A stretch of DNA of 64,000 nt from an uncultured Chloroflexia bacterium (GCA_963831715.1 CAWHRB010000002.1:225338-289337), one strand, 5' to 3'; shown: positions 1 through 59,864, counted from the stretch's first letter. Notes: generated by a model not told the origin, from the sequence alone. Numbers and translations are program-made.

Positions 1-1473
1 GCGGCTCGCGGTCTTGGCCGTGGGCTTGCCGGGAGCGGATTTCTTGGTGGCCGCGGGCTTCGCGCTGGCCGCGAGTTTCGCGGCGGCCGGTTTCTTGGCG
101 CTCGTCGGCTTCGCGGCGGCGACGGGCTTAGCGGCGACCGATGGCTTCGTGGCGCCAGCTGGCTTTCTGGCGGCCGCCGACTCCTTGGCCGCGACTGCCT
201 TGGTCGGGCTCACCTTCGCGGAGGCCTGCACCGGCGACTTCGCAGCGACCTTCTTCTTGGCCGGCTTGGGCTTCACGGCCGGCTCGCGGTCGAGCAGCAC
301 CGTCACGCCGGGCAGCTCGCGGCCTTCGAGGAATTCGAGGGAGGCGCCACCGCCGGTCGAGATATGGCTCATCTTCGAGGCCAGGCCCTGGCGGGTGATG
401 GCGGCCACCGAGTCGCCGCCGCCGATCACGACCGTTGCGCCCTTCTCGGCTCGTTCGGCCAGCATCCGAGCCACGGCGTTCGTGCCGTGGGCGAACGATG
501 GGATCTCGAAGACACCGAGCGGACCGTTCCAGAACACCGTCTTGACGTCGGACAGTGCGTCGACCATCAGGTCCTGGCTCGCCTTGCCGAGATCGACGAT
601 GTGCCAGCTCGCGGGGATCTTCTCGGCCTGCAGCGTCTTGTACTCGGTACCGCGCGTGACCTCCTTGGCCACGATGACGTCGACCGGCAGCACGATGCGG
701 ACCTTGTTCTTCTCGGCCCGGGCCAGGATGCGCCGGGCATCCTCGACGCGGTCCGGCTCGGCGAGGCTCTTGCCGATCGTCTTGCCCTGCGCGAGCAGGA
801 AGGTATTGGCCATCCCGCCACCGAGCACGAGCAGATCGACCTTGGTCAGGAGGTTGTCGATGACGCCGATCTTGTCGCTCACCTTGGCGCCGCCGAGGAT
901 CGCCGCGAACGGCCGCTCGGGTGCCTCGAGGAGCTTCGAGAGCATGGTCAGCTCGCGCTCCATCAGGAGCCCGGCGTAGGCGGGCAGGACCCTGGCGATA
1001 CCGACCGTGCTGGCATGCGCGCGGTGGGCCGTCCCGAAGGCGTCGTTGACGTAGAGATCGGCGTACGACGCGAGGATCGCCGCGAACTCGGGATCGTTGG
1101 CTTCCTCCTCGGGGTGGAACCGGAGGTTCTCGAGCAGGACGATCTCGCCCGGTCGCATGCGCCTGAGGGCGTCCTCTGTACCGAGGCCCAGCGCATCACC
1201 GGTGACCGGCACGTTCCGACGCAACAGCTCCGCCAGACGCTGGCCGACCGGCCGCAGGCGGAGGCCGTCGGTGACCTTGCCGTTGGGGCGGCCGAGATGG
1301 CTGGCCAGGATGACCTTGGCCCCGGCCTGCCCAAGGGAGACGATCGTCGGGATGGCCGCCCGGATACGGGAGTCGTCCTGTACCTTGCCGTCGGCGAGCG
1401 GGACGTTGAAATCGACGCGGACGAAGACGCGTTTCCCCGCGACGTCCGCGTCGCGGATCGTGAGCTTGTCCAT
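1..1473 (-). CDS. pgk: Phosphoglycerate kinase, fused in frame to a Lys/Ala/Pro-rich C-terminal tail of at least 95 aa. Partial: the ORF runs off the window start and no stop is seen.
   Basis: Reverse-strand translation from the ATG at 1473..1471 gives MDKLTIRDADVAGKRVFVRVDFNVPL...LGRPNGKV...GGGMANTFLLAQG...STGGGASLEFLEGRELPGVTVLLDRE. It then continues without a stop as PAVKPKPAKKKVAAKSPVQASAKVSPTKAVAAKESAAARKPAGATKPSVAAKPVAAAKPTSAKKPAAAKLAASAKPAATKKSAPGKPTAKTASR to position 1. The gene lies immediately downstream of gap, as expected for a gap-pgk operon. It is missing from the ORF track because it has no in-window stop. Confidence 0.9.
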   Translation of the reverse strand, partial: MDKLTIRDADVAGKRVFVRVDFNVPLADGKVQDDSRIRAAIPTIVSLGQAGAKVILASHLGRPNGKVTDGLRLRPVGQRLAELLRRNVPVTGDALGLGTEDALRRMRPGEIVLLENLRFHPEEEANDPEFAAILASYADLYVNDAFGTAHRAHASTVGIARVLPAYAGLLMERELTMLSKLLEAPERPFAAILGGAKVSDKIGVIDNLLTKVDLLVLGGGMANTFLLAQGKTIGKSLAEPDRVEDARRILARAEKNKVRIVLPVDVIVAKEVTRGTEYKTLQAEKIPASWHIVDLGKASQDLMVDALSDVKTVFWNGPLGVFEIPSFAHGTNAVARMLAERAEKGATVVIGGGDSVAAITRQGLASKMSHISTGGGASLEFLEGRELPGVTVLLDREPAVKPKPAKKKVAAKSPVQASAKVSPTKAVAAKESAAARKPAGATKPSVAAKPVAAAKPTSAKKPAAAKLAASAKPAATKKSAPGKPTAKTASR

Positions 1474-3932: not shown

Positions 3933-6900
3933 TCAGTCCCGTCTGCGAACCCCCAGCGAGGTGGCTCGCTCGCCTCGATCGGGCCCTGCCGAGCCGGTCA
4001 GACGGGCAAGCCGCGTCGTGACGCGCTCGGCCAGGAGCCGCTTGCCTTTGCGGCGGCGGAGGACCGTCATCGCCACCGATGCCAGCCCGACCACGAGCAG
4101 CCCGGCCAGCCCGGCGCCCGCGCCCGGCACGAGTGCGCCAGGGTCGGCGAAGCCCGCGGTCCGCACGTCAGCGTGGCTCCCGAGGGTCGGGGAGGGACTC
4201 GGCTCCGGGTCTGCCGTCGCGTCGAGGCGATCGAGCGCGCTCCCGAGCGTGAGCGCGGACGGATCGTCCACGACGAGCGCGGGCTCACCGTCCACCTGCT
4301 CCTCCACACGCCCCGTGGCGTTGATCGCGTCGTCCGGTTCGACGAGACCCACCCAGTCACTCGCGGCGCCCGTGAGCACGACGCGACCGACGGCGGTGCC
4401 GTCATCGAGCATGAAGCCATCGGATCGAAGGTCGACGACGAGTCCGCCGACGCGGACGACCGACCCGAGCAGCGACGCAAGGTCGACGAGGTCGGCTTGG
4501 ACCGTATCCGACGCCCGCGCGGCGGGTCCGGTCGGCGCACCCGTTCGTGTGTTCGACACCGTTCCAGGGCTCGAGCTCGGCGCCACGCCGCGCTGTCGGA
4601 CATCGGCGGTGGAGCGGGGCAGGATCGACGGCCGCTTGTCGGAGGCGCTCGGATAGGCGGGTCGGGCGATCCCGACGATGTCGGCCACGCGACCCTCGGC
4701 GAGGGCCGTGCTGGGGATCCGCGCGCCCGGTTGGGCCACCACGACCAGTTTCGTGGCCCCGACCACGATCTCGGCACGCCACCGCTCGCCCAGCTTGCTG
4801 ACGTCGTCCACGCGCCCGGCGATCGACACGAGCCGCCAGGTGTGCGCCGTGGTGAGTGGACCGTTGACCCGCAGCGGCGCGGGCACAGCCGCGGATCCGC
4901 GGCGTTCGAGCGTCTCGGCCCGCAGGCGCGGCGCACCGTACGCCGTTCCGACGCGACCGGCGACACGGGTGCGACTGCCGACCGACGGCGCCGAGGTGTC
5001 CTTCGGGATCAGGATCTCGATGGCCCCGGTCGCATCCTGGACGACGATCCGCCGCCCTGAACTGTCGAGCAGCTTCGCGCCTGCCGTGACGACCGCGTCG
5101 ATCGCGATGTCGCGATCGGTGATCCGGAGCGCCGTGGCGATCGACACGACCGACGGACGCGGTCCGTTCGACGCGCCCGGCTGACCCGCTGACGGCGAGG
5201 GCTTCGGAGCCGCGGCGAGGAGGGTCAGGTCGTGGCGGTCGCGCAGCCACACGCGGTAGCCGTCGAGCGCGCCCTTCGCGGTGGCGCGCTGTCCCGCGAT
5301 GCCGACCATCCGATACCGCGCGCCCTTGACGAACGATGTCGGCCGGAGCCCGCTCGAGGCATCGGCCATGATCCGCACCTTCGTCCCGCTGGCTGTCTCG
5401 ATCAGGACCCGGATGTCGCCGCTGTCGACCTTGGTCGGACGTTCCACGACGACGCCGGTCAGGCGAACGACTCGACCTTCCGTCGATTCATTCGGTCCAG
5501 CCGCCGGAACATCGATCGGGGCGGGTAGCGCGGCCGTGCCCTCGAACGTGATCCCGCTCGCGGCCGGGCGGATCTCGATCTGGCCGTATGGGTCGGCGAG
5601 CTTGCCGCTCACCGAAACGACGCGTCCTCGAGCCGGCGGCGTGGCACCCGAGGGCAGCTTGACGATGATGCCGCCGCTCGTGTCGGCGATCGCGAGAAGG
5701 CCGGCGGTCCCCAGGCGGCCCACCTCGGCGGTCACGACGCCGCGCACCGAGGCGGTGCTGCCGATCGCCTGCCCACGGACGCCCGCGATCGACGGCGTGG
5801 CGGGCGTCGGCGACGGCGCGGGGGTCGGCGAGGCCGTGGGCGTGGGGAGCGGAGATCCCGTCGGGCCGGGTGTCGGGGTCGGTGTCTGACTGGGCGTCGG
5901 GGCGGCTGACGGTGTCGCGGTCGGTGGCGGCTCGACGACGAGGTCTGAAACCGCCGTCACGAACAGACGATAGCCCGCGACGCCCGTCCCGGAGCTGTCG
6001 CGCTGTCCGAGCGGCCCGACGGCGATGATCCGCGAGCCGACGTCGAGCTGGCGCCCGGCGAGTGCACCCGGCGTCACGATGACCCGTGTCGCGCCGGAGC
6101 CGTCGTCGACCGTCACGGCCGTGCCGTCGGCGAGGCTGTCCGGACCAGAGGTCACGTCGCCGGTGACCAGGAGCCGTCGACCCTCGACGGGTTCGATGGC
6201 TGCTCCGGTGCTGGAGGTGAACGGGGCCGGCAGCGGCACGGTCCCCGTCGCGACGATGTCCGCCTCGCTCGCCCGGACCGTACGCTGCGCGAACCGGTCA
6301 TCGACCGAGCCATGCACGACCACGGACGTGCCGGCGACGAGCGAAGCCACGACCGCCGCGTCGAGATAGATGGCAACGCCGCCGCTGTCGTCCTGCACGA
6401 ACGCACCGTGTCCGGCTTCGAGCGCACCGAGATCCGTCGTGAGCACGCCGGCGATCGTCACCACGGCGCCGTCGGGTTGCCCGCGAGCGTCCGCGATCGA
6501 GACCGTCGATGGCGTGGGTTCCGGTGTAGGCGTCGGCGGGGGCGTCGGCGCGACCGTCGGGCTTGCGGTCGGTTCCGTCGTTGGTGATGGAGTGGACTCG
6601 GGCGATCCCGTCGGGGTCGATGTCGGCTCGGGTGTGGGCGTGACGGTCGGCTCGGCCGACGCCGTCGCCGTTGGACTCGGCGTGACGCCCGGCGACGGCA
6701 CGAGCGGAGAGCCGAGGTTCTGCGGACCTGGTGATGCGCTGAGGAACCAGTCGATCGCGTTGTCGTTGGTGTCCGATGCGTTCCCCGCCGGACCGCCCGG
6801 CCGCCGTTCGAGGCTCGACGACGCCGGCGGCGCAGGCGCGACCGTTCCCTCGACGAAGGCATTCGTCGCGTCGCCCCAGCCCACCGAGTCCACGACCATG

Positions 6901-7331
6901 CCACCGACGACGCGCAGGGCGACTGCGCCGCCGGTCGCCGCGAAGCCGCCGGTGTACGCCCCATCGCCGAGCCCCACGAAGGAGCCCGCGCCGTTGACGA
7001 TGAGGATCCGCTGGCCCGAGGCGAGGATCGTCGACGTCGTCCATGTGGCCTTGCGGGTGACCGTCGATCCGCTCGATGTCGAATACACGAGCTCGAGACC
7101 GACCAGGTCGACAGGTCCCGCACCCTGGTTCGCGATCTCGACGAACTCGTCCGACGCGCTCGATCCCCCGGTCTGCACTTCCGACACGACGATGGTCGAC
7201 GGCGGCCACGGGACGCTGGCGGCGAGTGCGACCGTCGCGCCCATGGGGATGGCGGCCGCCGGCAGGCTCGACAGGCACAGGGCGACGACGAGAAGGGGCG
7301 CGACAGTCGCCGCGCGCCGGACGCGTTGCAT
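3933..7331 (-). CDS. Very large secreted, cell-surface protein: N-terminal lamin-tail domain, Pro/Thr-rich linkers, repeated OB-fold-like modules, and a C-terminal transmembrane anchor.
   Basis: Signal peptide MQRVRRAATVAPLLVVALCLSSLPAAA. LTD motif VVSEVQTGGSSASDEFVEIANQGAGPVDLVGLELVY. PT-rich linkers (PTPTPEPTSTPTGSPESTPSPTTEPT...). Four repeats of the form SIADARGQPDGAVVTIAGVLTT...GAFVQDDSGGVAIYL, which resemble the OB-fold modules of ExeM/NucH proteins. C-terminal hydrophobic segment LAGLLVVGLASVAMTVLRRRKGKR. No nuclease catalytic domain was recognised. Confidence 0.8.
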   Translation of the reverse strand: MQRVRRAATVAPLLVVALCLSSLPAAAIPMGATVALAASVPWPPSTIVVSEVQTGGSSASDEFVEIANQGAGPVDLVGLELVYSTSSGSTVTRKATWTTSTILASGQRILIVNGAGSFVGLGDGAYTGGFAATGGAVALRVVGGMVVDSVGWGDATNAFVEGTVAPAPPASSSLERRPGGPAGNASDTNDNAIDWFLSASPGPQNLGSPLVPSPGVTPSPTATASAEPTVTPTPEPTSTPTGSPESTPSPTTEPTASPTVAPTPPPTPTPEPTPSTVSIADARGQPDGAVVTIAGVLTTDLGALEAGHGAFVQDDSGGVAIYLDAAVVASLVAGTSVVVHGSVDDRFAQRTVRASEADIVATGTVPLPAPFTSSTGAAIEPVEGRRLLVTGDVTSGPDSLADGTAVTVDDGSGATRVIVTPGALAGRQLDVGSRIIAVGPLGQRDSSGTGVAGYRLFVTAVSDLVVEPPPTATPSAAPTPSQTPTPTPGPTGSPLPTPTASPTPAPSPTPATPSIAGVRGQAIGSTASVRGVVTAEVGRLGTAGLLAIADTSGGIIVKLPSGATPPARGRVVSVSGKLADPYGQIEIRPAASGITFEGTAALPAPIDVPAAGPNESTEGRVVRLTGVVVERPTKVDSGDIRVLIETASGTKVRIMADASSGLRPTSFVKGARYRMVGIAGQRATAKGALDGYRVWLRDRHDLTLLAAAPKPSPSAGQPGASNGPRPSVVSIATALRITDRDIAIDAVVTAGAKLLDSSGRRIVVQDATGAIEILIPKDTSAPSVGSRTRVAGRVGTAYGAPRLRAETLERRGSAAVPAPLRVNGPLTTAHTWRLVSIAGRVDDVSKLGERWRAEIVVGATKLVVVAQPGARIPSTALAEGRVADIVGIARPAYPSASDKRPSILPRSTADVRQRGVAPSSSPGTVSNTRTGAPTGPAARASDTVQADLVDLASLLGSVVRVGGLVVDLRSDGFMLDDGTAVGRVVLTGAASDWVGLVEPDDAINATGRVEEQVDGEPALVVDDPSALTLGSALDRLDATADPEPSPSPTLGSHADVRTAGFADPGALVPGAGAGLAGLLVVGLASVAMTVLRRRKGKRLLAERVTTRLARLTGSAGPDRGERATSLGVRRRD

Positions 7332-8407: not shown

Positions 8408-11400
8408 TCACCCAAGGCGGCGCATACCGGCGTGGCCCATCTGCCGAACGCCCCCCGGCTGTTCAGGTCCACCGGCCGTGGCAGCCACCTCGGCGAGCGG
8501 CTGGACCGCGTGCGCCACGAGATTGACGACCGACCCCTCGCGCTGCAGCTCGCCATCGACCAGCAGCAGGGCGTGGCGACGGACCACCCCGCGTAATCGC
8601 TCCCAGGTCGACGGCCAGAGCGTGACGTTGACCATGCCCGTCTCGTCCTCGAGCGCGAGGAAGACCGTGCCCTTGGCGGTCATCGGGTGCTGCCGGGTGA
8701 CCACCAGCCCACCGACCCGCACCCGGCCCGGCTTGCGGTCCGACAACGACGCGTTCGTCACCGCCCCGAGTCGATCCAGCGCCCCGCGGAACAGCCCGAC
8801 CACCTGACGCTGCGCATCGACGCCGAGGACCGCGTACGCATCCCCGAGCCGCTCCGATTCGGTGATCGCGGGGAGGTCCGGCACGTCGGTCGGCGGCAGG
8901 CGCAGATCCATCGGTCGACCGGCGGCGGCACCACGTTTCCCGGCAGCCCGACCGAGGGCCCGAACGGTTCGCCCGTCCATCCGGCCACGTGACGCCCCGG
9001 CGACTTCGCGCAGCTGCCACAGGAGCTCGCGCCGTGGCCGCCCGAGCGAATCCATCGCCCCACTTCGGATCAGCCGCTCGAGCACCTCCTCGGGCAGGTC
9101 GGTCCGTTCCACGACATCGACCAGGCTGCGGTATGGGCCGCGTGTTCGCTCGGCATCGAGCAGCGCCTCGTGCTGCTCACCGATCCCCTTCACGAGGTGC
9201 AGCCCGAGCCGGACGCCCCAGCCACCGGTCGCCGACGGCGTCCATCGCTCGCGAGCCTCGCTCGACGGGACGATGCAGCCAGAGGACATCACCGTGTCCG
9301 GCTGGCCGTCCGGCCCGACCCACTCGGTCGTGGTCTTGTACGACGACGTGTTGATATCGACCGGCAGGACCGCGACACCGTGGCGCTTCGTGTCGTTGAC
9401 GAGGACCTCGACCGGGTAGAACCCCATCGGCTGGGCGTTGATCAGGCCGACCAGGAACTGGGCCGGATAGAACAGCTTGAGGAACGACGACTCATAGGCG
9501 GTCCGGGCGAACGCCGCGGCATGGCTCTTGGCGAACCCGAACGAGGCGAACGCCGAGACCTGGCGGAACAGCTCCTGGGCATCGGGCTCGGTCATGCCCG
9601 GCTGGCGCAGCGCTCCCTCGACGAATTGCGCATGGAGCTTCTCCATCTCGCGCGTCGAGCGCCAGGTGCCCATCGCTCGGCGGAACCCATCCGACTCCGC
9701 CGGCGAGAACCCCGCGACCTCGATGGCGATGCGCATCACCTGCTCCTGGTAGAGGATCACCCCGAGCGTGTCCCGAAGCACCGGCTCGAGGCTCGGATGG
9801 AGGTAGACCACCGGCTCGAGACCCTGCTTGCGGCGCAGGAACGGATGGACGGCGTTGCCCTGGATCGGGCCCGGCCGGATGATCGCGACCTCGACCACCA
9901 GGTCGTCGAGGCTCTGCGGCTTCGACTTCGGGAGCGTCTGCATCTGCGCCCGGCTCTCGACCTGGAAGACCCCCACCGTGTCGGCCGCCTGAAGCATCTC
10001 GAACACCTCAGGGATCTCCTCGGGCAGACGGTCGAGGTCGAGGCAGATGGCGCAGTCGTGCTCGATGAGCTGGAGCGTTTCGTCGATCGCGGCCAGCATG
10101 CCCAGCCCGAGCAGGTCGAGCTTGATGAGCTTGAGCGTCTCGACGTCGCGCTTGTCGAACTGCACGACGACCCGGTCGGGCATCGTCGCCTTCTCGAGCG
10201 GCGCGATATCGATCAGCGGGGCGGCCGTCACCAGCATCCCGCCCGAATGGATCGACAGGTGGCGCGGGAAGCCGTCGATGCGCGCGCAGAACTCTAGCCA
10301 GCGTTCCCAGTGGGAGAGACCGACCGTCGAACCGCCACGGGCCCGGGGCGGCTCCTCCGGCTCGATGCGAGCGACGGAGCTCGTGTTCGCCGGCGTGGGC
10401 GGGGGATCCCACATGTTCGGGCGACCGAGCCGGTCGGTCTTGCGGGGCGGCGGCAGACTGCATGCCGCTCTCCGGGTCGAATACTCGGGCCGATGGTGTC
10501 GCGGAGCTCCGCCTCGGACCTCGGAGCGAACCTCGCCGATCCGCCGGATCCGCCGGCCTCTGACCTGCATAGCCGGTCCCCCGGCCGGCGCGCAGCCACG
10601 CGACGCTCGCCGGGGTGTCGCCCGGACCACCCTCGTCGTCGGACGGCCCGCCGCGGATGGTCGTCACCGGCGCGAGCGGATCCTCGCGGAAGGCCTCGTG
10701 GGAGGCTTCACGAGACGCGGCCCGCGCGTTGTCGGCGATAGTTTCGCTCCCAGCAGAAGATCCGGGACTTCGGGGGGCGGAACCTGGACTCCGGGGAACG
10801 GAACGAGCCTCCATGGGCCTCGGTTGAGCGTGGCCGAGCAGGTCGCTCGTCGCTTGTCCCCCGGGAAGCCCTGAAGATTTCGACCCCACCGGAAAGGGCG
10901 CGGACATCAGCTCGGGCCGGGTCGCGGGCCCGGGCGCGGACATCAGCTCGGGCCGGGTCGCGGGCCCGGGCGCGGACATCAGCTCGGGCCGGGTCGCGGG
11001 CCCGGGCGCGGACATCAGCTCGGGCCGGGTCGCGGGCCCGGGCGCGGACATCAGCTCGGGCCGGGTCGCGGGCCCGGGCGCGGACATCAGCTCGGGCCGG
11101 GTCGCGGGCCCGGGCGCGGACATCAGCTCGGGCCGGGTCGCGGGCCCGGGCGCGGACATCAGCTCGGGCCGGGTCGCGGGCCCGGGCGCGGACATCAGCT
11201 CGGGCCGGGTCGCGGGCCCGGCGCCATTGTCAGTGGCACGATCCGCACGAGTGAGCGTGGTCGCGTCCCCGGACTGCGATGTGGGTGCAACTCGGTGCAC
11301 GTTCGTGGCGTACGTGCCACTGCCAGTGGCGCCGGCAGCGGACGCGGCGCCGGCAGCGGACGTGGCGCCGGCAGCGGACGCGCGCTCCCCCTCGTGCCCC

Positions 11401-13238
11401 GCGGGTACCTCCCGCAGCCAGGCGAACGGTCGCGGCGCATCGAGGTCCTCCGGTTGAGGCGGCTGACGCCAGGGTGGTACTTTCCCGACGAGCGGGATCC
11501 GCGTGTTCAACTGACCCATCCGGTCGACGAGACCGTGCGCCTCGGCTTCCTCGGCCGCGCGTGCCTCGCCCGGCAGGCCCTCCCCCGTCCGTCGGAAGAA
11601 CTCGGCGAACCCGCCGTCGGCCTCGAGGTCGCGCCGGACCATCACCGAGTCGTATGTCTCGAGCGCCTTGGCCACCCGATCGACGAGCGGCCGCGGGAAC
11701 CCCAGCGCGTAGCCCACCTCACGGACCGCCGAACGCGCCCGGTACGTGACGAGGTTGCAGACCATCCCCGTGTGCTCCGGCCCGTAGCGCCGATAGATGT
11801 ACTGGATGACCTCCTCCCGGCGCTCCGAGCTGAAATCGATGTCGACGTCCGGGTACGTCGTCCGGCCGGGATTGATGAACCGTTCGAACAGGAGGTTGTG
11901 GGCGATCGGCTCGACTCGGCTGATCCCGAGCGTGTACGACACGATCGAGCTGGTCGCGCTGCCCCGACCCTGGGCGGGGATCCCCCGTTCCCTGGCGAAA
12001 CGCATGAGGTCCCAGCAGATGAGGAAGAACTCGGCGAGGCCGGCTCGCTCGATCACGTCGAGCTCGTGGGCGAGCCGCGTGACGACGGCGGAGGTCAGCG
12101 GGTGGTAGCGATAGCGTGCGCCCGCCCAGCACAGCTCCGACAGATAGGAGAACGGCGTCTCCCCGGACGGCACCGTGAACCCCGGGAAGCGGTACTGCTC
12201 GAATTCGAGATCGAGGACGCACGAGGCGGCCACCTCGACCGACGTCGCGATGCCCTCACGCCAGGCCCGCGCCGTGTCCGCGTCGAACCCGGTAGCGACT
12301 GCCGCCATCTCGTCGCCCGACTTCACGAACGACTCGGCATCGGCTCGCCGCAGGTCGGCCAGCGTGTCGAGCGTCCGGCCATGGCGGATCGCGGTCAGGA
12401 CGTCGTGGAACTCGCGGTCGTCCGGGGTCGCGTAGTGGACGTCGTTGGTGACGACCACCGGCAGACCGAGCTCCGCAGCGAGCGCCGCGGACTCCGCCAC
12501 GAGCCAGTCGTCATCGGGCAGTAGGTGATGCGAGAGCTCGATGAAGAAGCCGCTGGTCGACGGCCCGTCACCACGGCCGAAGAGCGCGGCGTACCGCTCG
12601 GCGACGGCACGGGCGCCGGCTCGATCGCCGACGCGCAGTCGCCGGGCGATCTCGCCGTCACGGCATCCGGACAGCGCGACGATGCCCTCGTGCTCCGCCT
12701 CGAGCAGCTCGTGCCGGAAGCTGGGCACGGCCTTCGTCCCGGCCATGTTCGCCCGGGAGATCACCCTGCTCAGGCTGCGCCAGCCGACCGGGGACCGCGC
12801 GAGCAGCACGAGGTGTGGGCCGCGCGCCCGGTCGCCGATGCCGCGGAAGTCCTCCTTGACCGGATCGCGGTGACCGGGAAGCTTCGCCCGCCGGGGCCTC
12901 GGTCGGGCCGGCCGGCCCTCGGCCACCAGTGGCTCCGTCGCCGGGGGTTCGGCGCGGCGCCGGCGCGGTCGACGCCGTGGCGGGATGACGACGGCATCGG
13001 GATCCGGCACGGCCGGATCGAGCAGGCCGATCTCCGTGCCGACGATCCCATGCAGTCCGGCCTCCTCGGCGGCACCCATGAACCGCACCGCGCCGTACAG
13101 GCCGTTGTGGTCGGTGACGGCCAGTCCGCGCAAGCCGTTGGCCACAGCACGTTCGACCAGATCGTCCGGCGCCGAGGCCCCGTCGAGGAACGAGAAGTTG
13201 GTGTGGGCGTGGAGCTCGGCGTAGGGGATGGTCGCCAC
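8408..13238 (-). CDS. dnaE2: Error-prone DNA polymerase DnaE2 (ImuC), interrupted by a ~1 kb low-complexity insertion containing a VNTR. The N- and C-terminal parts lie in different frames, so this is either a pseudogene or an assembly error.
   Basis: GTG at 13238 gives VATIPYAELHAHTNFSFLDGAS (PHP domain), then the palm GRGSATSSIVSYTLGISRVEP...PDVDIDF, in the frame of ORF 10008..13592. ORF 8408..10630 holds HWERWLEFCARIDGFPRHLSIHSGGMLV, ILYQEQVMRIA, FGFAKSHAAAFA, HhH and OB-fold regions. The two frames overlap across 10008..10630. A LexA box and a TATGAT -10 lie immediately upstream. Confidence 0.8.
10898..11221. repeat. Perfect tandem repeat, 9 copies of a 36-bp unit (gcgcggacatcagctcgggccgggtcgcgggcccgg), inside the dnaE2 insertion.
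   Basis: Nine identical copies can be read directly in the sequence. In the dnaE2 N-terminal frame they encode (GPATRPELMSAP)x9. Confidence 0.95.
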
Positions 13239-13262
13239 AGCGGTCGCCTCGATCGGACCAGA

Positions 13263-13291
13263 TGGAGGGGGTTGACAATCATAGAACAAAT
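13263..13291. promoter_or_regulatory. LexA (Cheo-type) SOS box AGAACAAATGTTCA within the dnaE2 promoter, with a TTGACA hexamer on the opposite side.
   Basis: GAAC-N4-GTTC palindrome at 13272..13285. On the minus strand it is followed directly by TATGAT, about 35 nt upstream of the dnaE2 GTG. TTGACA at 13263..13268 faces the other way. Confidence 0.75.
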
Positions 13292-13342
13292 GTTCACTGT
13301 GCGGACGCGAAACAAGTCGGGCGGGTTCGGCGTCTCTTGGGC

Positions 13343-13486
13343 ATGCACGCACCCATCCAGCTCGATCGCCCGCTCCGACCGGTCGCCCTGACCGCGCTCC
13401 GGACGGCACTGGGTGTGATGGGCGCGCTGCTGCTGATCCTCGTCGTCCTGCCCTCCCTCCTGGAGGCCCAGGCGGCGGCGATCTAG
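13343..13486 (+). CDS. Candidate small hydrophobic peptide (47 aa), divergent from the dnaE2 LexA box.
   Basis: MHAPIQLDRPLRPVALTALRTALGVMGALLLILVVLPSLLEAQAAAI has one predicted transmembrane helix. No SD is present. It lies just downstream of the divergent SOS box. Confidence 0.3.
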   Translation: MHAPIQLDRPLRPVALTALRTALGVMGALLLILVVLPSLLEAQAAAI

Positions 13487-13590
13487 CCACCACATAGCGT
13501 CTCGGCGCCTGGGGGCTCGGGACGATCGGCGGCCCAGACCGCGATGGTCGGGAGCCGACCTGCCGGACCGCTGGTGAGCATCGGTCCGGC

Positions 13591-13636
13591 ACACAGGACC
13601 CCGTCGCTGGGGGCGACGGGGTCCTGTCACGTCCGG
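13591..13636. repeat. Copy 1 of a ~45-nt hairpin element (ACAGGACCCCGTCGC-loop-GCGACGGGGTCCTGT); copy 2 is at 15391..15438.
   Basis: The 15-bp perfect stem in copy 1 is acaggaccccgtcgc-tggg-ggcgacggggtcctgt. Copy 2 is near-identical (acaggaccccgtcgc-attgg-gggcggcggggtcctgt). Together they bracket the gene 13775..15376. Confidence 0.6.
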
Positions 13637-13774
13637 CCCGGCTGGCACGTCGGCGATGCCCGTCAGCTCGGCCCCGGCAAGGTTTTCGTTCGACGTGTCA
13701 TCCGCGAACACGTTGTTGATGCGGGGGTCCCAGCGTGTCGACCATCAACGACCGGTCTGCACAGGGAGGAATGC

Positions 13775-15376
13775 ATGTATCGCGCGTCACCGACCCGCCT
13801 CCGCCACCGCAGCATCGCCGTCGGCATGGCGCTCCTCGGCGTCGTCGCGTCGGCCGCGCCGACATCGGCTGCGGGCTCGACCGCCCACGGCCCCAGTACG
13901 ACCACCGCACCCTATGTGCTCCCTGTGGCCGACGTCCGGATCACCTCGCTGTTGACCGTCGGTGATGCGGGCGCTGCGGGGAACGGGTACGAGATGGTCG
14001 GCATCCCGGACGGCCTCGGCCTCACCACGAGCGGCCGCAAGCTCACGATCCTCATGAACCACGAGCTGCGCGACGCACCCGGCCAGGAGCAGGGCATCGT
14101 CCGGCGCCACGGCACGATCGGTGCCTTCGTCTCCCGGTTCGTCATCGATCCGAAGACGCTCAAGATCACGAGCGGTTCGGACCTGGTCGACCCCGGCATC
14201 CGATATTGGGACTACCCGAACGGCGGGTACGTCACGACGGGCCCCCGGTTCGCCGACATGACCGCCCAACAGCTATCGTTCGGCCGGTTCTGCTCCGCCA
14301 GCCTGACCGACCCGGGTGTGCTCTACAACGAGCGGACGGGTGCGGGCTACCGGGGTCAGCTCTTCTTCGGGAACGAGGAGGACGGCGACGTCGGGCGATC
14401 GTTCGCGATCACGACGGACGGCCAGGCGACGGCCCTCCCCCGGCTCGGACTGTTCTCATGGGAGAACACGGTCCCGGCCGATAATCGCTCCGACACGACG
14501 CTCGTGATGGGCCAGGAAGACGGCCCGGGTGACGGCAGCCAGCCGTGGGTGTACGTCGGCAAGAAGACGAAGTCCGGCGGCCCGGTCGCGCGCGCCGGGT
14601 TGACGAACGGCCTGTCGTTCGTCCTCGACACGGTCGACTCGACCGTCACGGATGACGCCGAATTTCGGGCGACCTTCGGTGTGAACACGCCGGCACCCGT
14701 GAACCTCGCCAACGTTCCCTGGAGCCTGACTGGTGCGCAGCAGAACACGCTCGCCATCGAAGCCGGGCTGAGCCTCAACCGGATCGAAGACGGCCACTGG
14801 GATCCGAAGCATCGGAACGACTTCTACTTCCTGACCACCGAGGGTGGCGAGAAGTCGGGCACCGGCCTCGATGGCCGGGACGGCGGCGGCCTCTGGCGGC
14901 TGCGCTTCAAGGACATCGAGCATCCGTTCGCGGGCGCCACCTTGACCCTGCTGCTCGACGGCAGCCAGTCGCTCGGCGCGACGGAACCCAAGTTCAACAA
15001 GCCCGACAACATGACCATCGATCGCCACGGCAACCTGCTCATCCAGGAGGACCCGGGCAACAACAACCACCTTGCCCGGATCATCGCGTATCGGATCAGC
15101 GATGGGGCCCTCGGCGTCGTCGCCCGGTTCGACGAGGCGAAGTTCGGCGTCGGCGCGACCGACGATCCGGCACGCCTCACGACCGACGAGGAGTCGAGCG
15201 GGATCATCGACACCGAGCGCCTGCTCGGGAAGAGCACCTTCCTATTCGACGCCCAGATCCACACCGCCAAGAACCTGCCGGCCGGGACCGGACCGGGCAC
15301 GGTGCAAGAGTTCGTCGAGAACGGCCAGCTCCTGCTCCTCAAGGTCAAAGACTGGGACGACGTGTACGGCGACTGA
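13775..15376 (+). CDS. Secreted protein of unknown function, possibly PhoX/DUF839-like beta-propeller.
   Basis: GGAGGA SD precedes the ATG at 13775. Signal peptide MYRASPTRLRHRSIAVGMALLGVVASAAPTSAAGS. No confident family match; the start was moved inward from ORF-track position 13544. Confidence 0.55.
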   Translation: MYRASPTRLRHRSIAVGMALLGVVASAAPTSAAGSTAHGPSTTTAPYVLPVADVRITSLLTVGDAGAAGNGYEMVGIPDGLGLTTSGRKLTILMNHELRDAPGQEQGIVRRHGTIGAFVSRFVIDPKTLKITSGSDLVDPGIRYWDYPNGGYVTTGPRFADMTAQQLSFGRFCSASLTDPGVLYNERTGAGYRGQLFFGNEEDGDVGRSFAITTDGQATALPRLGLFSWENTVPADNRSDTTLVMGQEDGPGDGSQPWVYVGKKTKSGGPVARAGLTNGLSFVLDTVDSTVTDDAEFRATFGVNTPAPVNLANVPWSLTGAQQNTLAIEAGLSLNRIEDGHWDPKHRNDFYFLTTEGGEKSGTGLDGRDGGGLWRLRFKDIEHPFAGATLTLLLDGSQSLGATEPKFNKPDNMTIDRHGNLLIQEDPGNNNHLARIIAYRISDGALGVVARFDEAKFGVGATDDPARLTTDEESSGIIDTERLLGKSTFLFDAQIHTAKNLPAGTGPGTVQEFVENGQLLLLKVKDWDDVYGD

Positions 15377-16189: not shown

Positions 16190-16438
16190 TTAGTCGTACA
16201 GGCGCTCGAGGTGCCAGGTCCCTGCGATGCGGTCCTGGTAGATGAGCGCGAGCCAGCGCTCCCCGGCCACCTTGGCGTAGTCGCGCGCGATCGGGTCGCG
16301 CCACCACGACTCCTCGACCCGCCATCGATTGCAGACCTCGACCGCCTCGCGCCGGCCGTTCCAGCTGATGGCCACGAGCCGGCCGTCGACATCGAGCTCG
16401 ACGTCGATGCGGGGGTGCTCGCGCAACAGTCGGGTCAT
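16190..16438 (-). CDS. Small conserved-looking protein (82 aa) translationally coupled to imuB through an ATGA overlap.
   Basis: MTRLLREHPRIDVELDVDGRLVAISWNGRREAVEVCNRWRVEESWWRDPIARDYAKVAGERWLALIYQDRIAGTWHLERLYD. Its ATG at 16438..16436 overlaps the imuB TGA at 16437..16435. Confidence 0.55.
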   Translation of the reverse strand: MTRLLREHPRIDVELDVDGRLVAISWNGRREAVEVCNRWRVEESWWRDPIARDYAKVAGERWLALIYQDRIAGTWHLERLYD

Positions 16439-17709
16439 GCCGGGGCCCCGCCACGGTCGTCCTCGGCAAGCCCGACCCCCTGCCACGTCCAGCGTTCCTC
16501 GGGCAGTGGCGCCTCCGGGTCGGTGATCGCCACGCGCCGGACTCGATCCTCGCCATAGGTCAGCGCGAGCCTCGCGAGCTGCCAATCGAGCCGTGCCGTC
16601 CGAGCCGCCTGCGGCACGAACAGCGGCAGTTGCTGACCGGCGGCCGGCGTCGTGCCGCGCAGCTCCAGGTCGAGTCGTTGGACCGCCGCCGGCGGCGGCT
16701 CACGCTCCAGCCGCGCGAACAGCAGCCGCTCGACCGCCTCGGCGTCCGCGGTGGGTTCCGGGAACCGCTGCTCGACCTCGATCCGCGGTGACGTCCCGGT
16801 GGGCGCGAACGCCAGATCGAGCTCCAGCGCCAGGATGGCGCGGTCAGCCGCCAGACCTCGAGCGCCGAGCTGCGCGGTAAGACCGGCCACCAGGCGATGC
16901 AGCACGAACCGGAGCGGTTCGAGTTCTTCGACCGGCGGCTCGATCGGCAGAGCGAGAGCCAGGCGCTTCGTCGCGCGCCGGGCGCGGAACGGCTCGGTCT
17001 CCTGGCCCCTCGCCCGGGCATGGAGGCGGCCGCCCTCGTCGCCGAACCGGGCGATCAGCGCGGACGTCGGGAGTTCCGCCACGGCACCGATCCGGCGCAG
17101 CCCGAACCGGGTGAGTCGTGCGCGGATGTCGGGGTCGGTGGTCAGGAGTGTGGACGGGCGATCGGCCAGGAACGCGGCTTCGTCGCTGGGGGGCACGATG
17201 ATCGGGGCATCCGGCCCTGCCGCCATCGCGGCGATGGTCGCCGCGAAGTGCGTGCCGGCGATCCCGACCCGTGGCTCCACCTCCCCGGGGAGCGCCTTCG
17301 CGACGGCGCCCGTCAGCCGCTCGGCGAGGACGGGCTCGGGACCCCACAAGGGCCCGAGGCCGTCGATGCCGACCTCGAAGAGCCCGAATGCCACGTCCCG
17401 TGGATCGGCACTCCCCGCCAGGCTCGGGCTGAAGGCCCCGAGCGCCTCGAACACGACCTCGGCAGTTCCCCGATCCGCCTCGGGATCGGGATCGATGAAG
17501 GTCGCCTCAGGGACGAGTCGATGCGCGCTTCCGAGCGGCATCCCCCGCCGGACGCCGAGCGCCCGGGCGGTCGGGTCGGCGTCGATGACCGGTCCCGGGT
17601 CCCACGGTCGACCGCCCAGCACGAGCGGACCTGTCGGGCAGGGCTCGGAGCGTCGGGCCAACGCCAGATGGAGTGGCAGGTGCGGCAGGAACAGGTGCAG
17701 CCGTCGCAT
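16435..17709 (-). CDS. imuB: ImuB, a Y-family-polymerase-like mutasome subunit.
   Basis: MRRLHLFLPHLPLHLALAR matches the typical DinB/ImuB N-terminus, and the protein lies downstream of imuA'. The start could instead be the ATG at 17736. It overlaps the 3' end of the imuA' ORF in another frame. Confidence 0.82.
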   Translation of the reverse strand: MRRLHLFLPHLPLHLALARRSEPCPTGPLVLGGRPWDPGPVIDADPTARALGVRRGMPLGSAHRLVPEATFIDPDPEADRGTAEVVFEALGAFSPSLAGSADPRDVAFGLFEVGIDGLGPLWGPEPVLAERLTGAVAKALPGEVEPRVGIAGTHFAATIAAMAAGPDAPIIVPPSDEAAFLADRPSTLLTTDPDIRARLTRFGLRRIGAVAELPTSALIARFGDEGGRLHARARGQETEPFRARRATKRLALALPIEPPVEELEPLRFVLHRLVAGLTAQLGARGLAADRAILALELDLAFAPTGTSPRIEVEQRFPEPTADAEAVERLLFARLEREPPPAAVQRLDLELRGTTPAAGQQLPLFVPQAARTARLDWQLARLALTYGEDRVRRVAITDPEAPLPEERWTWQGVGLAEDDRGGAPA

Positions 17710-18574
17710 GGTGGATCTCGCGATCGGGGGCCTCATGAGCGGGGGCTTGGTCGATCAACAGGGCGTCCCGAGCGAGGCACGTGTCCCGCTCGCCGCCCTC
17801 GGCGTAGAGGATCCGGAGCGTCGCCCGGCGGCCAGGCGGTCCGTGCCGGTTGTGCGCGACGAGCGCCTCGGTCCGTTGCCCGACGACGTCACGCCCGAGA
17901 CGCACCCACGACCGGCGCGCCAGCTCGAGTCGGATGCCGGTCGACTCGGCGACCGCGGTCGCCAGACCGCCAGCGAGCCCCGGCGCATCGAGGATCAGCA
18001 GCAGCGTCTCCGCGCGCCGCGCGAGCGCCGCGAGCCGATGCAGCCGGTCACCGATCCTCGACGGCGTGTCGGTCCGAGCCAGTCGGCCGCCGGGCAGGTC
18101 GAGGACCAGCAGGTCGACCGAGCGGCCGGCGAGCAGGCTGCCCGCGATCGACAGGCCCTCGTCGAGGCTGGCCGGCGTGATGACGACGAGCCAGTCGAGA
18201 TCGACCCCGCGCGCGACGGCCTCGACCGGGTCGAAGCTCCGCGACAGGTCGAGCCAGGCCACGACCGACCCCTGTGCCTGGGCCTCCGCGGCGACCCGGA
18301 GGCTCAGGGTGGTGCGGCCGCTCGTACCCTCGCCGCGGATCGCGACGCTGGCCGATCTCGGCAGACCACCCGGGCCGAGGATGGCATCGAGCGCCGCGAA
18401 GCCGGTGCGGATGACCCGCTCGTCGGGTCGGGGGTCGTACTGTGGCTGGACGTCTTCGACCGGGTCGGGCGCGGGCGCCAGGGCCAGCGCGCCGATGACC
18501 CCCGGAGCTGCGGCACCCCAGCGCGCCCGGAGGCCCGCAACAGCAGCATCCACATCACCCCGCCCGGTCGACAT
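17507..18574 (-). CDS. imuA: ImuA' (RecA/SulA-fold mutasome protein).
   Basis: FAALDAILGPGGLPRSASVAIRGEGTSGRTTLSLRVAAEAQAQGSVVAWLD is a RecA-like P-loop region. It is the first gene after a LexA box. The long low-complexity C-terminus overlaps imuB. Confidence 0.8.
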   Translation of the reverse strand: MSTGRGDVDAAVAGLRARWGAAAPGVIGALALAPAPDPVEDVQPQYDPRPDERVIRTGFAALDAILGPGGLPRSASVAIRGEGTSGRTTLSLRVAAEAQAQGSVVAWLDLSRSFDPVEAVARGVDLDWLVVITPASLDEGLSIAGSLLAGRSVDLLVLDLPGGRLARTDTPSRIGDRLHRLAALARRAETLLLILDAPGLAGGLATAVAESTGIRLELARRSWVRLGRDVVGQRTEALVAHNRHGPPGRRATLRILYAEGGERDTCLARDALLIDQAPAHEAPDREIHHATAAPVPAAPATPSGVGPTLRALPDRSARAGRSTVGPGTGHRRRPDRPGARRPAGDAARKRASTRP

Positions 18575-18584
18575 CGGACGCCGA

Positions 18585-18600
18585 TAATAGAACAGATGTT
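18585..18600. promoter_or_regulatory. LexA (Cheo-type) SOS box TAGAACAGATGTTCTA, fused to the imuA' -10 element.
   Basis: On the minus strand the sequence reads TAGAACATCTGTTCTATTATcggcgtccgATG. This is GAAC-N4-GTTC, then TATTAT, then 9 nt, then the imuA' ATG, which implies a leaderless transcript. Confidence 0.8.
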
Positions 18601-18642
18601 CTAGTCAGGCAAGGGCGAAATCGACTGACGCGGCAGCATCGA

Positions 18643-45186: not shown

Positions 45187-45257
45187 TCTCCCACGGCCCC
45201 CGCAGAGGGCCGCCCCGGCGGCTCCGGCCGTTCGCGGCGCGGCGGCCCCGGCGGCAT

Positions 45258-45456
45258 TTGGAACATGACATGTTCCGTCCGACCGGCGAACCCGCGCTTT
45301 TCGGTCGATCGGAACATGTGGGGTTCCAGATCACCGGTAATCGGGCATTTCGACGGCTCAGACAGGCCTTCGGCGGTCGCTTGGAACATGTGATGTTCCA
45401 CGTGCGGATGAGGACGTCGAATCAGGACGTCGGCCGGGCCCGGAACTCTGGTTCGG
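45258..45456. promoter_or_regulatory. Three GGAACATG-N-CATGTTCC-type palindromes plus a Cheo-like box, in the obg upstream region.
   Basis: 45258..45277 ttGGAACATGaCATGTTCCg. 45311..45327 GGAACATGTGGGGTTCC. 45381..45400 ttGGAACATgtgATGTTCCa. 45441..45456 cGGAACtctgGTTCGg. Confidence 0.5.
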
Positions 45457-58612: not shown

Positions 58613-58628
58613 ACTGTCTAGACAGTCG
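58613..58628. promoter_or_regulatory. Perfect 16-bp palindrome GACTGTCTAGACAGTC between the divergent ROK and Gfo/Idh/MocA genes; candidate ROK operator.
   Basis: The palindrome is exact. It is embedded in TCTAGAC-TG-TCTAGAC, with TTGACA at 58535. Confidence 0.5.
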
Positions 58629-58636
58629 TCCAAGTC

Positions 58637-59864
58637 TTGCGCCAGGCTGGAGGAGGCCCGACGCCCTTGGTCAACCGCGGATCGATCGGTGCCGCCGTCA
58701 TCGGGACGGGTTTCATCGGCACGGTCCACGTCGAAGCCTTACGACGGATCGGCGTCAGCGTGCGCGGCGTGCTCGGCAGTAGCCCGGAACGTGGGGCGGC
58801 GCGCGCCGACGCGATCGGCGTGGCCACGGCGTATCCCTCGCTTGACGACCTGCTGGCCGATGACGGTGTCCAGGTCGTCCACGTCACCTCGCCTAACGAC
58901 CTGCACGTCAGCCAGACCGATGCCACGCTCCGGGCCGGCAAGCACGTCGTGTGCGAGAAGCCGCTGGCGATGACTGCCGCGGATTCAGCGCGGCTGGTGG
59001 CACTCGCCGCCGAGACGCGGCCTCGTCAACGCGACCAACTTCAACATCCGCTTCTATCCCCTCAACCAGCAGGCGCGCGAGGTGGTCGCGGAGGCCGGTC
59101 TGGGCCAGGTCCGCCTGGTGACCGGCCGCTATTTCCAGGACTGGCTCCTCCTCGAAAGCGACTGGAACTGGCGACTGCAGCCGGACCGCGGCGGGGCGCT
59201 CCGGGCCGTCGGCGACATCGGGTCGCACTGGCTGGATCTCATGACCTACGTCACCGGACAGCATGTCGCGTCGGTGATGGCCGACCTGACCACCTTCATC
59301 GAGACGCGTCGGGAGCCGACCGGGCCGGTCGAGACCTTCTCGACCGATCGGTCCGTGGAGACGGTCGAGCGCGACATCGCGACCGAGGACGCGGCGACGA
59401 TCCTGCTCCGCTTCGACGGCGGCGCGCGTGGCGCCGTAAGCATCTCGCAGATCAGCCCGGGCCGAAAGAACTCGCTCGTTTACGAGATCGATGGTTCGGA
59501 TGGCGCCTGGGGCTGGGACAGCGAGCAGCCGGATCAGGCCTGGATCGGCCACCGCGATCGCGCGAACGAGATCCTCATCCGCAACCCGGCCCTCATGGGT
59601 CCAGCCGGCCAGGCGGCGTCCGCTCTGCCCGCAGGACATGTCGAGGGCTTCTTCGACACGCACTGCGCCCACTTCCGGGCGATCTACGACGACGTCCTCG
59701 CCGGGCGACCCTCCTCCTCGCCCGGCTATGCGACCTTCGCCGACGGGCACGACGAGATGCTCGTCGGCGAGGCCATCGCCCGCAGTTCTCGTGAGGGCCG
59801 GTGGGTCGACGTCGTTCGGTCGGACGCCCTGGCGGCCGCGACGCCGCAGGAGACGCACGCGTGA
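58637..59864 (+). pseudogene. Gfo/Idh/MocA-family oxidoreductase with a single-base frameshift near 59018.
   Basis: ORF 58637..59794 reads well up to AAETRP. ORF 59082..59864 continues the same protein, and its frame extended upstream gives GLVNATNFNIRFYPLNQQAREVVAEAGLGQV. The junction lies at gagacgcggcctcgtcaac. Confidence 0.75.

Follow-up and report, generated by a model that had tools for sequence, protein, structure and literature searches.

Whether a polymerase gene that carries more than a kilobase of low-complexity sequence, a perfect tandem repeat and a change of reading frame can still be a working gene is the question raised by the dnaE2 gene of an uncultured Chloroflexia bacterium. 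The gene, which encodes an imuC-type C-family polymerase, occupies 8408..13238 on the minus strand of a 64,000-nucleotide stretch of DNA (GCA_963831715.1 CAWHRB010000002.1:225338-289337). This whole stretch is referred to as the window, and all positions are counted from its first letter. A first-pass annotation of the window had described dnaE2 as disrupted by an insertion of about 1 kb. We consider it probable instead that the locus encodes a functional DnaE2 of 1609 amino acids (aa) with a thumb loop expanded throughout its lineage, a young in-frame array inside this loop, and an unrelated consensus error.

A single dnaE2 gene in two reading frames

Genes were located by codon log-odds segmentation with Pfam checks; the GC content of third codon positions (GC3) alone was too noisy, since antisense frames mirror the signal. 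The minus strand contains two long open reading frames (ORFs), A at 10008..13592 and B at 8408..10630, which overlap at 10008..10630. ORF A matches the PHP domain (PF02811, 8.7e-33) and positions 1-183 of PF07733 (6e-55), and ORF B matches positions 193-260 of PF07733 (1.7e-16), the finger domain PF17657 (1.5e-54), the HhH domain PF14579 (HHH_6, 1e-19), and the OB domain PF01336 (3e-8). One DnaE-type polymerase gene is thus divided between two frames within PF07733 (positions 183/193), and the DnaE domain order of PHP, Pol III alpha palm/thumb, finger, (HhH)2, and OB is complete over both ORFs. The acidic motifs of the palm are kept: PDVDIDF aligns to PDFDVDF of the E. coli alpha subunit, whose acidic residues we take to be D401/D403, and QFDKRD aligns to E. 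coli QFDKSD.

The N-terminal part in frame A (10461..13238, minus strand) comprises the PHP domain, the first palm part with PDVDIDF, the first thumb helix, and most of the loop. The C-terminal part in frame B (8408..10456, minus strand) comprises the end of the loop, the second palm part with RHLSIHSGG and QFDKRD, the fingers, and the HhH and OB domains. As delimited by Pfam and synteny, the gene is 4831 nucleotides (nt) long, or 3 x 1610 + 1, and removal of a single base gives a continuous 1609-aa product in the repaired translation. The likely start is the GTG at 13238, because homologues begin with M-x-x-x-PYAELH. The nearest genomes are metagenome-assembled genomes of Candidatus Limnocylindria (Chloroflexota), the best being MFD09206.bin.1.191 (L001), and the dnaE2 homologues in L001, L019, and others are syntenic and single-ORF. 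The frame-A part is 89.6% identical to L001 over 586 aa and the frame-B part is ~93% (92.9%) identical over about 634-636 aa, while actinobacterial DnaE2 proteins show 38-43% identity to the C-terminal part.

The thumb loop and its minisatellite

The insertion in the thumb extends over 10310..11618 (minus strand), from after VMVRRDLEA to before WERWLEF, and measures 1309 nt (3n+1), or 436 aa when repaired. The low-complexity extra sequence reported between the palm and thumb landmarks is therefore present, at about 1.2-1.3 kb; the distance from IPLVGKVPP to HWERWLEF, previously given as ~330 codons, is 1159 nt (~386 codons). Loop lengths in relatives were anchored on VMVRRDLEA and WERWLEF, both of which could be placed in 15 Limnocylindria genomes. 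All 15 have a loop at the same site with a length of 288-1308 nt (96-436 aa), always a multiple of three, and the repaired loop of the window equals that of the longest relative, L004. Actinobacterial DnaE2 proteins have ~20 aa at this site. In a comparison with solved structures, the loop maps between residues 486/495 of E. coli Pol III alpha and between residues 525/558 of the Taq enzyme. Residues 513-552 of the Taq enzyme form the thumb helix-loop-helix (PMC3919608), and the loop is accordingly placed inside this element. The GC content of the window is 69.5%, and an expanded thumb in a high-GC genome is a known kind of variation, though one unmatched at the present scale. Comparison with relatives had been set beforehand as the test of disruption, and all 15 anchored genomes share an in-frame insertion in the same loop together with its motifs. 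As the codons downstream of the frame change also lack decay, the view that the insertion disrupts the gene is not supported.

The DnaE2 proteins of a second clade in other Chloroflexota (L017, L018, and L030; ~50% identical) also have a thumb loop of ~200-290 aa at the same position, which indicates that the expansion is older than Limnocylindria. Their loops contain elements of their own (DSSWNxRPRP, GGWYPxxRPxVxDASVT, and PRDxGSPGP) and have DPESGMP in common with Limnocylindria. No intein, homing endonuclease, transposase or other Pfam domain was detected above threshold within the loop of the window. The sole Pfam signal there was a sub-threshold HhH match inside the repeat (22.3 bits against a cut-off of 24). 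Insertion of an intein or mobile element was rejected on this basis.

Alignments divide the loop into four conserved islands and intervening hypervariable segments rich in Ala, Pro, Gly, Arg, and Ser. Island i (11409..11534, minus strand; GLVDRMGQLNTRIPLVGKVPPWRQPPQPEDLDAPRPFAWLRE) has the consensus LVDxMGQLNTRIPLVGKVPPWRQPPKPEDPxAPRPFAWL, many columns of which are invariant in 44 sequences. Island ii (10569..10640, minus strand; DDEGGPGDTPASVAWLRAGRGTGY; consensus DD[EK]GGPGD[TS]PASVAWLRxGxGTGY) is the core motif of the insertion. Island iii (10397..10478, minus strand; DPESGM-x-LPPPRKTDRLGRPNMWDPPP; consensus DPESG-xxx-PPxRxxDxLGRPxxWDPP) is split by the frame change. Island iv (10313..10381, minus strand; SSVARIEPEEPPRARGGSTVGLS; consensus SSVARIEPExPPxARGGST) leads into the thumb/palm helix HWERWLEF. 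Of the Limnocylindria DnaE2 proteins examined, only that of L081 lacks a complete island ii: its DDEGGPGD half is missing from each of the three frames. Even the shortest loops contain the island. L005 has two copies in its thumb loop (GGPGD at 6614 and 6848 of L005), and in the fetched loci the island was seen nowhere outside these loops. When a 45-residue island-ii query was searched against 1.84 billion proteins, only 48 representatives matched. All 10 of the long matches checked were DnaE-type polymerases in which the motif separates the two PF07733 halves; among them are proteins of 1463 and 1461 aa, full length and encoded by a single ORF.

In the repaired loop, 83% of the residues are of the disorder-promoting types A/P/G/S/R/T/D/E/Q/N/K, and 16% are hydrophobic compared with 33% in the remaining protein. 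When the repaired core (794 aa) was predicted with AlphaFold2 (AF2) from an alignment of 44 sequences, the model was poor, its mean predicted local distance difference test score (pLDDT) being 48.5 and its predicted template modelling score (pTM) 0.35. The loop, core residues 231-570, was modelled as coil with no secondary structure at block-mean pLDDT values of ~34-52; the values were ~38-47 over the repeat and rose slightly, to ~69, over DPESGMQLPPPRK. Judging from the composition, the hypervariability, and this low-quality model, the loop is probably disordered.

The first variable segment, between islands i and ii and in the same reading frame as both, contains a perfect minisatellite of 9 x 36 bp at 10896..11219 (minus strand), which encodes (GPATRPELMSAP)9. 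Tandem Repeats Finder reported a period of 36, 9.1 copies, and 100% matches with a score of 652 at 10896..11221. Nine exact 36-mers were counted at 10896..11219, where none are expected from shuffled sequences. The count, identity, and frame given in the first-pass annotation thus stand, and only its phase (10898..11221) needs correction. In the frame of the N-terminal ORF, the GC3 of the array is 1.00. We rejected a coding gene running across the repeat on the plus strand, since its high GC3 mirrors that of frame A, which also encodes the conserved sequences on either side. No other tandem repeat in the 64 kb comes close to the score of the array; those that follow score 103 (in the same loop) and 97, and the 36-bp unit does not recur in the window. 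Two smaller in-frame repeats lie nearby: an array of 18 bp x 3.1 with 94% identity at 11328..11382 (minus strand; SAAGAT-type units) and a 21-bp x 1.9 duplication at 10765..10804 (minus strand; SVPRSPG/SAPRSPG). As 36 bp correspond to 12 codons, a change in copy number would alter only the length of the loop and never its frame. The array therefore cannot toggle the frame and does not qualify as a contingency locus as usually understood.

Searches for the repeat in other collections were negative: an exact 26-mer had no match in JGI metagenomes, a protein-based scan with the variable segment gave no confirmed match, and none of the matches listed from a set of 5.8 billion proteins covered the repeat, the best match covering 40% of the query. 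Other young arrays were observed in the loops of relatives. The loop of L005 contains a 30 bp x 5.2 array at 100% identity and an 18 bp x 6.9 array at 98%, that of L007 contains a 9 bp x 5.1 array at 100%, and that of L004 contains a 21 bp x 2.5 repeat. In L081/P0003, a duplication of ~50 aa involves the segment that precedes the array in the window. The two arrays in L005 are also in frame, encoding (GAAGSVPHAS)x5 at 6183..6339 and (DRGDEL)x6.9 at 6476..6599. Over ~336 kb, comprising the window and the Limnocylindria loci, arrays of at least 5 copies with at least 98% identity occur solely in the thumb loop. This confinement across relatives marks the loop as a hot spot for slippage-type expansion, and the array in the window is its latest and largest expansion. 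Every junction between repeat units forms the canonical G-quadruplex motif G3N2G3N4G3N3G3, giving eight in tandem at 10914..11186 on the plus strand, opposite the coding strand of dnaE2; the whole 64 kb has only 12 (plus) and 5 (minus). These motifs, which are missing from the L005 arrays, may make the array in the window less stable.

These features suggest a course of events in which the loop at the tip of the thumb in Limnocylindria expanded to a probably unstructured tether of ~100 to 436 residues. The four islands would be putative docking or packing elements within the tether, and the variable segments presumably grow and shrink by replication slippage. The array would be the latest of these expansions, adding 108 residues to variable segment 1 and giving a longer tether rather than an on/off switch.

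The frame change and its alternatives

The frame change lies at 10457..10460 (minus strand), where the four bases in ATG-CAGT-CTG stand opposite three in L001, L019, and L002 in the DNA alignment (minus-strand context GGC ATG CAGT CTG CCG). This site is 436 nt downstream of the array, outside any repeat and inside island iii. Frame A encodes the conserved DPESGM up to the shift, and frame B encodes LPPPRKTDRLGRP...WDPP...SSVARIEPE...HWERWLEF after it. The two halves are thus in different frames, as previously stated; the change is not spread over 10008..10630 and consists of one extra nucleotide. The number of residues between ESG and PP[PA]R is exactly three in all relatives, and this constant spacing makes one extra base a simpler explanation than two missing bases. 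The repair restores the island-iii spacing typical of the family.

The ratio of nonsynonymous to synonymous substitution rates (dN/dS) against L001 is 0.072 downstream of the shift (634 codons) and 0.125 upstream (dS ~0.55); against L019 it is 0.139 for the downstream 634 codons. The 682 codons downstream of the shift are under strong purifying selection and show no signs of decay, and no further lesion was found in the 4.8-kb gene, frame B being free of stops and additional shifts. Of the usual signs of a pseudogene, a disrupted frame is present, and relaxed selection and further lesions downstream are absent. The homologues retrieved from long contigs in the European Nucleotide Archive (ENA) and from Microflora Danica (MFD) genomes contain many frame changes, some of them out-and-back. 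For the MFD genomes, Nanopore reads alone were assembled with Flye, followed by a single round of Medaka polishing (PMC12313526). All of the 120 matches listed from the 5.8-billion protein set are of at most 706 aa and many are visibly frameshifted fragments; this list was not used to estimate the true rate of gene breakage. Complete genes in a single frame are nonetheless present in the genome collection. The most likely origin of the extra base at 10457..10460 is an error in the consensus of a long-read metagenome assembly, which we favour over a real recent frameshift.

Among individual relatives, three dnaE2 frame changes were seen within ~500 bp of the PHP region in L002 (4823..6592), where the neighbouring genes are single-frame, and at least seven in L016 (5067..8923). 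One frame change in the loop is present in each of L030 (about 6200..6400) and L081 (about 1200..1230). Another gene of the window, encoding a Gfo/Idh/MocA oxidoreductase (58622..59864, plus strand), likewise has a one-base frameshift, which we count in favour of an assembly error in dnaE2. The NAD-binding N domain of the oxidoreductase is encoded by one ORF (58622..59794) and the C domain by another (58974..59864), and the shift is at ~59017..59023 with the junction GAG ACG CGG C/CTC GTC. As a check on the frameshift rate, the comEA-comEC-holA (plus) and rsfS-nadD-obg (minus) genes at 37792..45330 were inspected and all are single-frame.

Several points weigh against our reading. The extra base is outside a homopolymer, the classic site of Nanopore errors, and two frameshifts in 64 kb with ~55 genes also fit a normal load of real pseudogenes. 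The disorder of the loop rests on composition, hypervariability, and a weakly informative AF2 model (mean pLDDT 48.5). In addition, the 36-bp unit was found in no other assembly of the collections searched. Exact look-ups of three proteins of the window (the product of the N-terminal DnaE2 ORF, a LacI-type regulator, and LeuRS) likewise gave no match. The first two of these points, together with the plain presence of the frame change in the given sequence, would suit a real insertion by which dnaE2 was very recently inactivated in the strain or in part of the population. What would be made then is a truncated PHP-palm product ending in 150 nonsense residues, which would leave the mutasome without function. 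L081, an independent NCBI genome represented by a 4.8-kb contig, is likewise frameshifted in the loop and without the DDEGGPGD half. Such an inactivation is nevertheless somewhat unlikely, given the single lesion, a downstream dN/dS below the upstream value, the intact imuA-like and imuB-like genes, 15 of 15 relatives in frame, and the many obviously erroneous frame changes in related long-read assemblies. That the two halves are both intact, and that frame B has candidate starts (GTG at 10630 and internal ATGs) upstream of its conserved part, could also be taken for programmed +1 ribosomal frameshifting or for two polypeptides forming a split polymerase. We give this hardly any credence: a slippery or stall sequence is missing from ATG-CAGT-CTG, no stop codon follows closely in frame A, which stays open for 150 codons, none of the 15 anchored relatives has the shift, and the shifts of other relatives are at different positions.

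Regarding the array, the identity of all copies, the absence of the unit from every other sequence of the collections searched, and a length (324 bp, perfect) beyond short-read assemblers would be expected if the array, or its copy number of nine, were an assembly artefact and the true locus had fewer, more or no copies. This is unlikely, because 324 bp is well within the reach of long reads, the array is in frame with conserved islands on both sides and has a GC3 of 1.00 in the coding frame, independent perfect arrays are present in the loops of L005 and L007, and the repaired 436-aa loop is no longer than that of L004. The original proposal, in which a foreign or runaway low-complexity insertion of ~1 kb disrupts an otherwise normal DnaE2 and the repeat acts as a variable-number tandem repeat (VNTR) or contingency locus toggling the frame, draws on a loop ~20 times the length of that in actinobacterial DnaE2 and on the perfect repeat inside it. 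We regard it as very improbable, since the loop is common to the lineage, in frame, and partly conserved, the period of 12 codons is a multiple of three, the shift is 436 nt from the array, and no mobile-element or intein domain is present. A functional 1609-aa DnaE2 with an expanded thumb loop and an assembly error in island iii thus remains our preferred explanation.

The mutasome setting and relation to known systems

Upstream of dnaE2 are an intact, single-frame imuB-like gene (16435..17754, minus strand; Pfam IMS and IMS_C, Y-family fold; 86% identical to L001) and an intact imuA-like gene (17507..18604, minus strand; Pfam RecA 9e-26, RecA fold), a layout that is syntenic in L001. The earlier assignment of the gene to dnaE2 is borne out by this context together with the Pfam domains and palm motifs. 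A LexA-type box GAAC-N4-GTTC is located at 13284..13295 (GAACAAATGTTC on the plus strand), 46 nt upstream of the GTG start of dnaE2, and a second GAAC-N4-GTTC box is located at 18590..18601, at the 5' end of the imuA-like gene. The motif has 5 matches in the 64-kb window compared with 0.92 expected. On these sequence features the locus is an SOS-type imuA-imuB-dnaE2 mutasome module for which LexA control is predicted.

Between the imuB-like gene and dnaE2, a PhoX-like ORF with a weak Pfam match (6.5e-7) lies on the opposite strand (13544..15376, plus). L001 has only about 1.4 kb at this position and no counterpart of the ORF, so the module is interrupted in the genome of the window. Downstream of dnaE2, at 3933..7331 (minus strand), is a gene whose 1132-aa product combines a lamin-tail domain with OB folds (LTD, BOF, and tRNA_anti-codon). 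It is syntenic in L001, L019, L002, and L081 with 46-60% identity, compared with 85-93% for the neighbouring genes, and contains degenerate CCGACG-type repeats in relatives.

The protein resembles the DnaE2/ImuC of ImuA-ImuB-DnaE2 mutasomes (M. tuberculosis DnaE2; DnaE2A group, PMC12926913) in its domain order and in having no C-terminal tau-binding domain. The PDVDIDF and QFDKRD motifs, the upstream imuA-like and imuB-like genes, and a GAAC-N4-GTTC box before both units are further likenesses to known mutasome DnaE2. It differs from actinobacterial DnaE2 in its 436-aa rather than ~20-aa thumb loop, in the lineage-specific motifs and tandem arrays, and in the length of the repaired protein, 1609 aa; the module differs from known ones in the opposite-strand PhoX-like gene between imuB and dnaE2. 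A 2014 survey (PMC3919608) only lists Chloroflexi as bearers of DnaE1 and DnaE2 and gives no account of a disordered loop running to hundreds of residues, or of conserved islands or minisatellites within one. We consider the locus mildly novel in the scale and architecture of the loop and in the lineage-specific GGPGD/VAWL motif.

The array resembles the in-frame VNTRs of bacterial low-complexity linkers in its multiple-of-three period, its Pro/Ala/Gly-rich spacer, and an effect on length but not on frame; a slippage origin is presumed. In-frame coding minisatellites are best known from surface and secreted proteins. The present array is hosted by a cytoplasmic DNA polymerase and lies inside a subdomain of the catalytic core. 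The locus shares with phase-variable contingency loci a repeat tract in a coding region near a frame change, but differs from them in that the 36-bp unit is frame-neutral and the frame change is 436 nt away, outside the repeat.

For annotation, the locus is to be entered as a single dnaE2 in which a one-base assembly error is suspected, and not as a gene that is phase-variable or destroyed by an insertion. The case shows hypervariable GC-rich loops as spots where long-read metagenome consensus sequences tend to break frames. In current models of the ImuA-ImuB-DnaE2 complex, the interfaces are assigned to the PHP and (HhH)2 regions (PMC12926913), and if the islands were partner-binding motifs, they would provide a new contact point for such models. 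A bolder and improbable extension is that the loop is a functional, fast-evolving tether in which the acidic/aromatic island DD[EK]GGPGD[TS]PASVAWLR, seen in these polymerases alone, docks a partner (such as ImuB, the sliding clamp, RecA or DNA) and in which changes in minisatellite length alter from strain to strain how far the mutasome reaches or how active it is. If so, the loop would be a length rheostat within an SOS mutagenesis polymerase, and the frequent frame changes in the loop across assemblies could be partly real. With regard to the lineage itself, these soil Chloroflexota tolerate, and partly conserve, a loop of up to 436 residues in the thumb of a translesion polymerase, in which young minisatellites recur.

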